Assembly: GCF_056712565.1 (NCBI RefSeq)
Contig: NZ_CM160072.1
DNA: 64,000 nucleotides
Direction: 5' to 3' (one strand)
The first letter of the stretch is position 1. Each line of letters opens with the position of its first letter. Position numbers and translations under genes: made by a program. This document shows, piece after piece, positions 21,031 through 21,608 of the stretch. The notes under the pieces are model-generated. The model saw nothing but the letters and a program-made list of their open reading frames with translations, did not search any database and was not told the origin of the DNA.

Positions 21031-21189
21031 TCATCCTGTGCTTGGTTAAATTGTGAGCGAGATCGCGTCTCCGATTGACTGCAATTTAACCAATTAAATT
21101 CTAAAAAAATCACGAAAAAAATTTTACCTCCGCATCATGCGGTGAATGTGGGAATTGCCCAGGCGGCGGGGGATAGGGGCTGCAGACAG

Positions 21190-21216
21190 TTATCCACTAT
21201 TCCTGTGGATAACCAT
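21190..21216. promoter_or_regulatory. Inverted pair of DnaA-box-like sequences in uvrB upstream region
   Basis: ttatccact-attcc-tgtggataa: two 9-mers matching TTATCCACA in inverted orientation. Confidence 0.5.
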
Positions 21217-21514
21217 GTGTATTAGAGTTAGAAAACACGAGGCAAGCGAGAGAATACGCGGCTTGCACGCGAATTGGCGTTAAAGACGGCTCAAAGAAAT
21301 ATCTTTTATTTTTTAACAGGTTAGATAATTGCAATGGCAGTCACTGAACAGGCATCTCTTGCCATAAAACTGTCATCAATCATCTTGACAAATGTTAAAA
21401 AAGCCGTTGCTTTGGGGATAACCCGGTAAGGCCGGAGTTTTATCTCGCCACAGAGTAAATCTTGTTCATGATTGACAGCGGAGTTTACGCTGTAACAGAA
21501 ATATTATGGTGATG

Positions 21515-21534
21515 AACTGTTTTTTTATCCAGTA
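21515..21534 (+). promoter_or_regulatory. LexA (SOS) box of uvrB promoter
   Basis: aactgtttttttatccagta fits CTGT-N8-ACAG SOS-box pattern, followed by tataat-like -10 (agtataatt). Confidence 0.75.
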
Positions 21535-21608
21535 TAATTTGTTGGCATAATTAAGTACGACGAGTAAAATTACATACCTGCCCGCCCAACTCCTTCAGGT
21601 AGCGACTC

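Follow-up and report, generated by a model that had tools for sequence, protein, structure and literature searches.

What does the spacer between bioD and uvrB of E. coli contain beyond the SOS promoter of uvrB, and do the two inverted repeats in it, a pair of DnaA boxes and a long dyad shortly after bioD, belong to one regulatory element? The window analysed here is a stretch of 64,000 nt from an E. coli chromosome, in which the spacer lies at 21031-21608. A sequence-only reading of this DNA had described a non-coding interval of 578 bp, and this length is confirmed by the bioD stop at 21030 and the uvrB ATG at 21609. The dethiobiotin synthase gene bioD (20353-21030, plus strand), the last gene of the bioBFCD operon, was placed with the ORF list and with the RefSeq annotation of a K-12-like strain and MG1655 mapped onto the window, and uvrB (21609-23630, plus strand) with the ORF list and genome comparison. 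A 641-bp query around the spacer is 100% identical to E. coli strain ZJ3920, and the spacer is found between annotated bioD and uvrB genes in 5424 of 5426 complete E. coli genomes. Its counterpart in MG1655 is 812948-813525 (NC_000913.3 numbering), where RefSeq annotates no feature; an Rfam search of window 20500-22100 at a permissive threshold returned chance matches to eukaryotic families only.

Our answer, which very probably holds as a joint explanation, is that the spacer contains DARS1 (DnaA-reactivating sequence 1), lying on the promoter uvrBp3, and a separate Escherichia-specific dyad, most likely a 3' hairpin of the bio operon. What was observed is genuine and could hardly be due to chance; it concerns, however, a textbook element, DARS1 overlapping uvrBp3, and is not a discovery. 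Few chromosomal sites govern the balance between ATP-DnaA and ADP-DnaA, and with it the timing of replication initiation; DARS1 is among them, and it couples replication control to the SOS repair gene uvrB. Because RefSeq leaves the spacer blank, recognising DARS1 matters for annotation. The additions made here are small: a core that is invariant family-wide, a second invariant block at a fixed distance of ~223 bp, and an Escherichia-only dyad on what appears to be relic promoter DNA.

The DnaA boxes and the DARS1 core

It is well documented that DARS1 strips ADP from DnaA, regenerating ATP-DnaA for replication initiation (PMC6868365, PMC5742627). It measures 101 bp within the bioD-uvrB spacer and consists of a core and a flank of ~50 bp that enhances ADP release in vitro (PMC5742627); in the core, boxes II and III both point the opposite way to box I, a gap of 5 bp separates box I from box II, and the consensus is complete in box II (PMC6868365). 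DnaA paired head-to-head on boxes I and II gives off ADP, a reaction that depends on Gln208 (PMC6868365). In K-12, deletion of DARS1 has been published to lower both origin concentration and fitness and to delay initiation.

Judged by its sequence, the inverted DnaA-box pair of the window is the core of this already known element. Box I, TTATCCACT, occupies 21190-21198 on the plus strand (DnaA-box7 of the uvrBp3 region) and faces box II across a 5-bp gap, ATTCC, in the arrangement described in PMC6868365. Box II, TTATCCACA, at 21204-21212 on the minus strand (DnaA-box6, overlapping LexA-box4), carries the full consensus and occurs exactly once in the 64-kb window. Box III, TAATACACA, at 21216-21224, lies 3 bp from box II and shares its minus-strand orientation. 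The flanking regulatory region follows at 21225-21290, with approximate limits taken from the extent in the literature, the identity to K-12 and the conserved blocks. The sequence-only reading had recognised the pair, but it ended the motif at 21216 instead of 21212 and called the two 9-mers perfectly inverted; the opposite orientation holds, whereas boxes I and II differ at position 9, and the perfect inverted repeat is formed by GTTATCCAC (21189-21197) and GTGGATAAC (21205-21213).

The assignment is consistent at several levels. That box I stands opposite to boxes II and III agrees with the published descriptions (PMC6868365, PMC5742627); the spacing of 5 bp between boxes I and II and 3 bp between boxes II and III, that is 9+5+9+3+9, is the same in the window core and in K-12 DARS2; and the features specific to DARS1, namely the location in the bioD-uvrB spacer, the full-consensus box II and the flank of ~50 bp identical to K-12, are all present. 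The DARS1 double box printed in a DnaA ChIP-seq study, cTAATACACAtggTTATCCACAg, is the exact reverse complement of 21203-21225. With 24 sites in the window at one mismatch from TTATCCACA, an inverted partner at the fixed 5-bp offset is therefore expected only ~0.002 times, by our estimate. On a separate point, sites at most one mismatch from TTATCCACA number 24 against 12.1 +/- 3.7, and 0 of 100 dinucleotide shuffles reach 24, with codon bias left uncontrolled in this comparison.

The segment 21184-21317 is identical to K-12, and thus the K-12 experiments on DARS1 apply here. The sequence-only reading had called for DnaA binding data at this locus, and such data exist for the identical K-12 sequence: a DNase I footprint of DnaA has been published at the K-12 DARS1 boxes, and DnaA occupies the site in vivo by ChIP-seq (PMC11317965). 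Experiments in K-12 have demonstrated that DnaA binds, that ADP is released and that the promoter is repressed, and the identity of sequence leads us to expect the same in the present strain. In the order of events established there, ADP-DnaA first binds box II, the perfect consensus; the DnaA bound to it then recruits its partners, head-to-head on box I and head-to-tail on box III; and the head-to-head dimer on boxes I and II brings about ADP release.

Using BioD as a probe, we collected 80 loci from Enterobacteriaceae genomes, 73 of which reach uvrB. The string TTATCCAC[T/C]ATTCCTGTGGATAA, spacer included, is invariant in 73/73, box I varying only between T and C at its position 9, and the distance from the core to the uvrB ATG is 415-421 bp in nearly all of these loci. 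Near-invariant columns across genera cover 21186-21236 and 21244-21265, that is, the DARS1 core and flank; within the flank, the near-invariant blocks are 21226-21236 and 21244-21265. The LexA box and the uvrBp1 and uvrBp2 hexamers are likewise near-invariant, and much of the remaining spacer is 20-60% conserved. The family-wide invariance of the core, including its 5-bp spacer, is an addition of this analysis, if a small one.

This pattern also bears on a different reading of the same bases, in which the main role of the inverted boxes would be that of a hairpin in RNA or an intrinsic terminator (GUUAUCCAC..GUGGAUAAC plus a U-rich tail) and not that of DnaA sites. A simple terminator scan does flag 21189-21213 together with CATGTGTATT; however, the 7-nt loop and the 5-bp spacer of the repeat are as invariant as its arms in the 73 loci, which an RNA stem would not need, and the repeat is the DnaA consensus, for which the published DnaA footprints, ChIP and mutagenesis contradict a terminator-only role. 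We regard a terminator here as extremely improbable.

The uvrB promoters and a second invariant block

Three uvrB promoters are located in the spacer, and uvrBp3 is subject to repression by DnaA as well as LexA via the DnaA boxes described above (PMC6015884). uvrBp3 overlaps the DARS1 core, its transcription start lying near the left end of 21225-21290, and uvrBp1 and uvrBp2, with the strong LexA box, are found 300-350 bp downstream of the DARS1 boxes. According to published K-12 work, mutation of box II derepresses uvrBp3 6-13-fold, and boxes II and III share bases with a weak LexA box; DnaA on the DARS1 boxes, in competition with LexA at this weak overlapping box, represses uvrBp3. LexA box 1 (the SOS box), CTGTTTTTTTATCCAG, lies at 21517-21532 within uvrBp2, has the form CTG-N10-CAG with an A/T-rich centre, agrees with the published uvrB LexA box AACTGTTTTTTTATCCAGTA and is conserved across genera, so the LexA box noticed earlier near the uvrB start is confirmed at this position. 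On the plus strand, the -10 hexamer of uvrBp2 (TATAAT, 21533-21538) and the two hexamers of uvrBp1 (TTGGCA, 21542-21547; TAAAAT, 21565-21570) were placed by a promoter scan and by conservation, with names from PMC6015884. The layered regulation beyond the SOS promoter that the sequence-only reading had proposed was right in outline and was already published as three promoters with DnaA and LexA acting on uvrBp3 (PMC6015884); what that reading missed is the replication-control role of DARS1, together with box III.

A second block of near-100% conservation occupies 21385-21446 and consists of TTGACAAATGTTAAAA, then TGGGGATAACC, a variable hairpin and GTTTTATCTC. Its consensus (window 21384-21446) reads CTTGACAAATGTTAAAA, ~11 variable bases, T[T/C]TGGGGATAACC, 9-10 variable bases and GGTGTTTTATC, or in summary TTGACAAATGTTAAAA ... 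TGGGGATAACC ... GTTTTATC; it is non-coding and single-copy, and over 74 Enterobacteriaceae loci it varies as little as the DARS1 core does. Within TGGGGATAACC lies a DnaA-like box, TTATCCCCA (21413-21421, minus strand), one mismatch from the DnaA consensus, and its reverse complement, TGGGGATAA, starts 222-224 bp after box I in 74/74 loci. A possible second box is TGTTAAAAA, the reverse complement of TTTTTAACA, with 8/9 agreement to TTWTNCACA.

At the RNA level, GGGAUAA (21415-21421) can pair with UUAUCUC (21440-21446), and 94% of the cells pair across the 74 loci; in this GGGAUAA/UUAUCYC pair, the 3' side shows only C or U opposite an invariant G, and the 5' side never varies. RNAalifold on the block did not call the GGGAUAA helix and gave only an invariant TTGAC/GTTAA pairing, and single-sequence folds were mixed. 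Two other candidates were set aside. A 31-codon ORF (21334-21429) was rejected as a small protein, as several genera lack its start codon, the C-terminus is unconserved and third codon positions are among the conserved bases; and a sigma-70, -28, -32 or -E promoter in the block amounts to partial hexamer matches seen by eye, a sigma-70-type promoter scan giving no call.

Three further 'potential DnaA-boxes 2-4' have been counted between uvrBp2 and uvrBp3, in a text that gives no sequences for them (PMC6015884), and the second block is probably among them. A further lead comes from the DnaA ChIP-seq table, where DARS1 has the coordinate 813331, the only ChIP-seq coordinate published for it. The DARS1 double box is centred at 813131 (NC_000913.3), 200 bp from this value, and NC_000913.3 position 813331 equals window position 21414 (locus L083), inside TTATCCCCA, which spans 813330-813338; the other rows of the table lie 12-35 bp from their motifs in the same numbering. 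The coordinate is either a mistyped digit or a real summit on the second block, and the text and supplement of that paper do not decide between them. One might imagine that DARS1 is larger than 101 bp, the second block looping to the core as a further anchoring site for DnaA or serving as a DnaA-controlled attenuator of uvrBp3 transcripts, and the dyad on the bioD side insulating it from bio read-through, by analogy with tRNA read-through at datA; we consider such an extended element unlikely. The only leads with novelty are the second block, invariant and at its fixed distance, and the relic promoter setting of the dyad, and they stand here as side observations.

The long dyad after bioD

The dyad starts 11 nt past the bioD stop codon and is made of a left arm, TTGGTTAAATTG (21042-21053, plus strand), and a right arm, CAATTTAACCAA (21082-21093, plus strand), 28 nt apart, the right arm being 100% complementary to the left one and paired with it in the predicted RNA fold. 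The sequence-only reading had placed a long dyad at about 21046-21092, and the dyad and its N28 loop are indeed there, but the arms are 12 nt long, not 10. Because it lies on the bioD side, the dyad is outside DARS1 as defined, and the alignments point to a separate feature, specific to Escherichia. Among simulated spacers of equal composition, 0.14% contain an inverted repeat that is perfect over 12 nt and has a loop of at most 40 nt (p about 0.001). Per 64-kb window, 0.23 such repeats are expected and 5 are observed; the four others, with loops of 4-11 nt, lie at 23638-23666, 50873-50907, 58271-58298 and 60079-60108, and the one at 23638-23666 begins 8 nt after the uvrB stop and is probably the uvrB terminator.

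Across 5424 E. coli genomes the dyad is single-copy, and both major E. coli haplotypes carry perfect arms, of 13 nt in K-12 and 12 nt in the window. In the other Escherichia species, the outer 6 bp are invariant (8 lineages) and the outer stem is predicted in 8/8 lineages; at inner sites, A>G or C>T substitutions lead to G.U pairs, or there are mismatches, which two lineages carry, and compensatory double changes are found in none of the Escherichia lineages. The plus-strand RNA fold of the dyad has -19 kcal/mol and z = -2.6 against shuffles, versus z = -0.6 for the minus strand. The arms lack complementarity outside Escherichia, with pairing in 56% of cells family-wide against 34-47% in slid controls. 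The earlier idea of a structured untranslated element finds no support for the dyad, which matches nothing in Rfam, is absent outside Escherichia and shows no compensatory changes as a conserved structured RNA would; the covariation analysis across Enterobacteriaceae, suggested at the same time as a check, comes out against it on the same pairing figures and on the lack of double-sided changes within Escherichia.

The dyad is no canonical intrinsic terminator either: in place of a G+C-rich stem, a loop of 3-8 nt and a U-tract adjoining the stem, it has 3 G-C pairs in 12, a 28-nt loop and a poor U-tract tail (UUAAAUUCU), and a terminator scan gives no call at it. The supplement of PMC7815308 lists no 3' end for bioD, which is uninformative because that data set was not designed for bio-operon expression. 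Directly after bioD, other genera carry unrelated G+C-rich hairpins, and for this reason we favour the dyad as a bio-operon 3' hairpin on relic promoter DNA; this is our best guess, and a neutral origin is nearly as likely. Such a hairpin would fold at the 3' end of the bioBFCD mRNA, where it could terminate or stabilise the transcript. A REP-like repeat was rejected for a sequence that is single-copy in 5424 genomes and lies where MG1655 has no annotated feature, and so was a BirA or LacI operator, whose half-site orientation or symmetry does not seem to fit.

The loop of the dyad contains a decayed palindrome resembling the CRP core, TGTGAGCGAGATCGCG (21052-21067), with GATC at 21061-21064. 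It matches TGTGA-N6-TCACA at 8/10 positions in the window and at 7/10 in K-12, where it starts TGCGA. Many genera carry AAATGTGA-N6-TCNCA at the dyad-loop position; at equal offset among Enterobacteriaceae (loci L024-L080), the match is at least 8/10 in 34 of 74 loci and 9-10/10 in 24, and one symmetric pair covaries, being C-G in 27 and T-A in 27. The motif TGTGA-N6-TCNCA stands ~130 bp upstream of the DARS1 core, at a fixed offset in many genera, is decayed in Escherichia and Citrobacter, and is missing from Klebsiella and Kluyvera.

About two thirds of the genera have an ORF of 240 aa on the minus strand between bioD and DARS1, which runs towards bioD (convergent) and overlaps it slightly. 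This ORF encodes an ABC-type ATPase, closest to UrtE but under the family cut-off, and can be described as an orphan, UrtE-like gene (2665-3387 on the minus strand in both loci L031 and L066). The gene is present in Enterobacter, Klebsiella, Kosakonia, the C. freundii group and others; it is absent from Escherichia, Salmonella, Citrobacter koseri, C. amalonaticus and Kluyvera, and variable within Citrobacter. The E. coli dyad DNA, both loop and arms, aligns with the region upstream of this gene in other genera. Since CRP-core scores reach 9-10/10 elsewhere against 7-8/10 in E. coli, the dyad loop appears from these alignments to be a decaying relic of an older regulatory site, the complementary outer arms having apparently arisen in the Escherichia lineage.

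Two other accounts of the dyad draw on these data. The dyad or its inner palindrome might be bound as double-stranded DNA by CRP or a different dimeric protein, which would modulate DARS1 or uvrBp3, much as the IHF and Fis sites serve DARS2. The fixed offset of the TGTGA-N6-TCNCA motif and its one covarying symmetric pair would suit such a site, and the palindrome is retained in genera that lack the ABC gene; however, DARS1 is active in vitro without accessory proteins and its 101-bp extent lies on the other side of the core, the centre of the site, ~160 bp upstream of where uvrBp3 starts, is at too great a distance for CRP to activate in the standard way, and the motif is weakest in Escherichia and absent from Klebsiella and Kluyvera, so that we hold a protein site to be decidedly unlikely. 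Alternatively, the dyad may have no function at all and be a relic of the promoter region of the lost ABC-ATPase gene, its complementarity having come about by neutral drift or by a single template switch ('quasipalindrome correction') in the Escherichia ancestor. In Citrobacter and Salmonella the sequences that align with the arms are not complementary, family-wide pairing is close to that of the slid controls (56% vs 34-47%), changes within Escherichia are wobbles or mismatches with none compensatory, and the CRP-like core has decayed to 7-8/10 in E. coli, all of which speak for neutrality. Against it, a perfect repeat of 12-13 nt has been kept in both haplotypes despite 8 substitutions between window and K-12 in the 30 bp directly to its left, the outer 6 bp show no variation among the 8 Escherichia lineages, and chance alone has a p of about 0.001. 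A functionless dyad is a serious possibility, if less likely than not, and the bio-operon 3' hairpin remains the reading that we prefer.

Comparison with known systems

The earlier studies by Fujimitsu et al. in 2009 on DARS1 and by van den Berg in 1985 on the uvrB promoters are cited here by way of later papers. Compared with Rho-independent terminators and 3' stabiliser hairpins, the dyad is similar in adjoining the last stop codon of an operon (11 nt) and in folding stably on the sense strand only; it differs from Rho-independent terminators in its A/U-rich stem, its 28-nt loop and the lack of a proper U-tract. Compared with the CRP site TGTGA-N6-TCACA, the palindrome of the window is an 8/10 candidate and the orthologous sites of other genera score 9-10/10, but its right half is decayed in E. 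coli (TCGCG), and most genera can be read with an 8-bp spacer too.

The uvrB promoter cluster of the window, uvrBp1, uvrBp2 and uvrBp3 under LexA and DnaA control, matches the published sequences (Sancar 1982; van den Berg 1985; Wurihan 2018, PMC6015884); that work singles out neither the bioD-proximal dyad nor the strict conservation and spacing of the 21385-21446 block. With the DARS1 of K-12 (Fujimitsu et al. 2009; Sugiyama et al. 2019, PMC6868365), the window shares the locus, the three boxes, their orientation and spacing, and the sequence of both core and flank. There are no differences in the core, and all deviations of the strain from K-12, such as those around the dyad, lie outside DARS1.

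DARS2, in the region upstream of mutH, has the same core architecture as the window, with box I opposite to boxes II and III and gaps of 5 and 3 bp; read from the K-12 genome, its core is TTATTCACC-TTTTC-TGTGGATAG-AGT-TGTGAAGAA, that is 9+5+9+3+9. The K-12 DARS2 region also holds a second DARS-core-like array (locus L082, 15525-15560), TTATCCCAG-CTTTC-TGTGGATAA-CA-TGGTGTAAG, which has a 5-bp gap between its inverted boxes, as in the cores, and is the distal DARS2 double box of the published ChIP-seq table. The boxes of DARS2 are weaker than those of DARS1, and DARS2 requires IHF and Fis sites in a regulatory region of ~400 bp; DARS1, unlike DARS2, works without an accessory protein.
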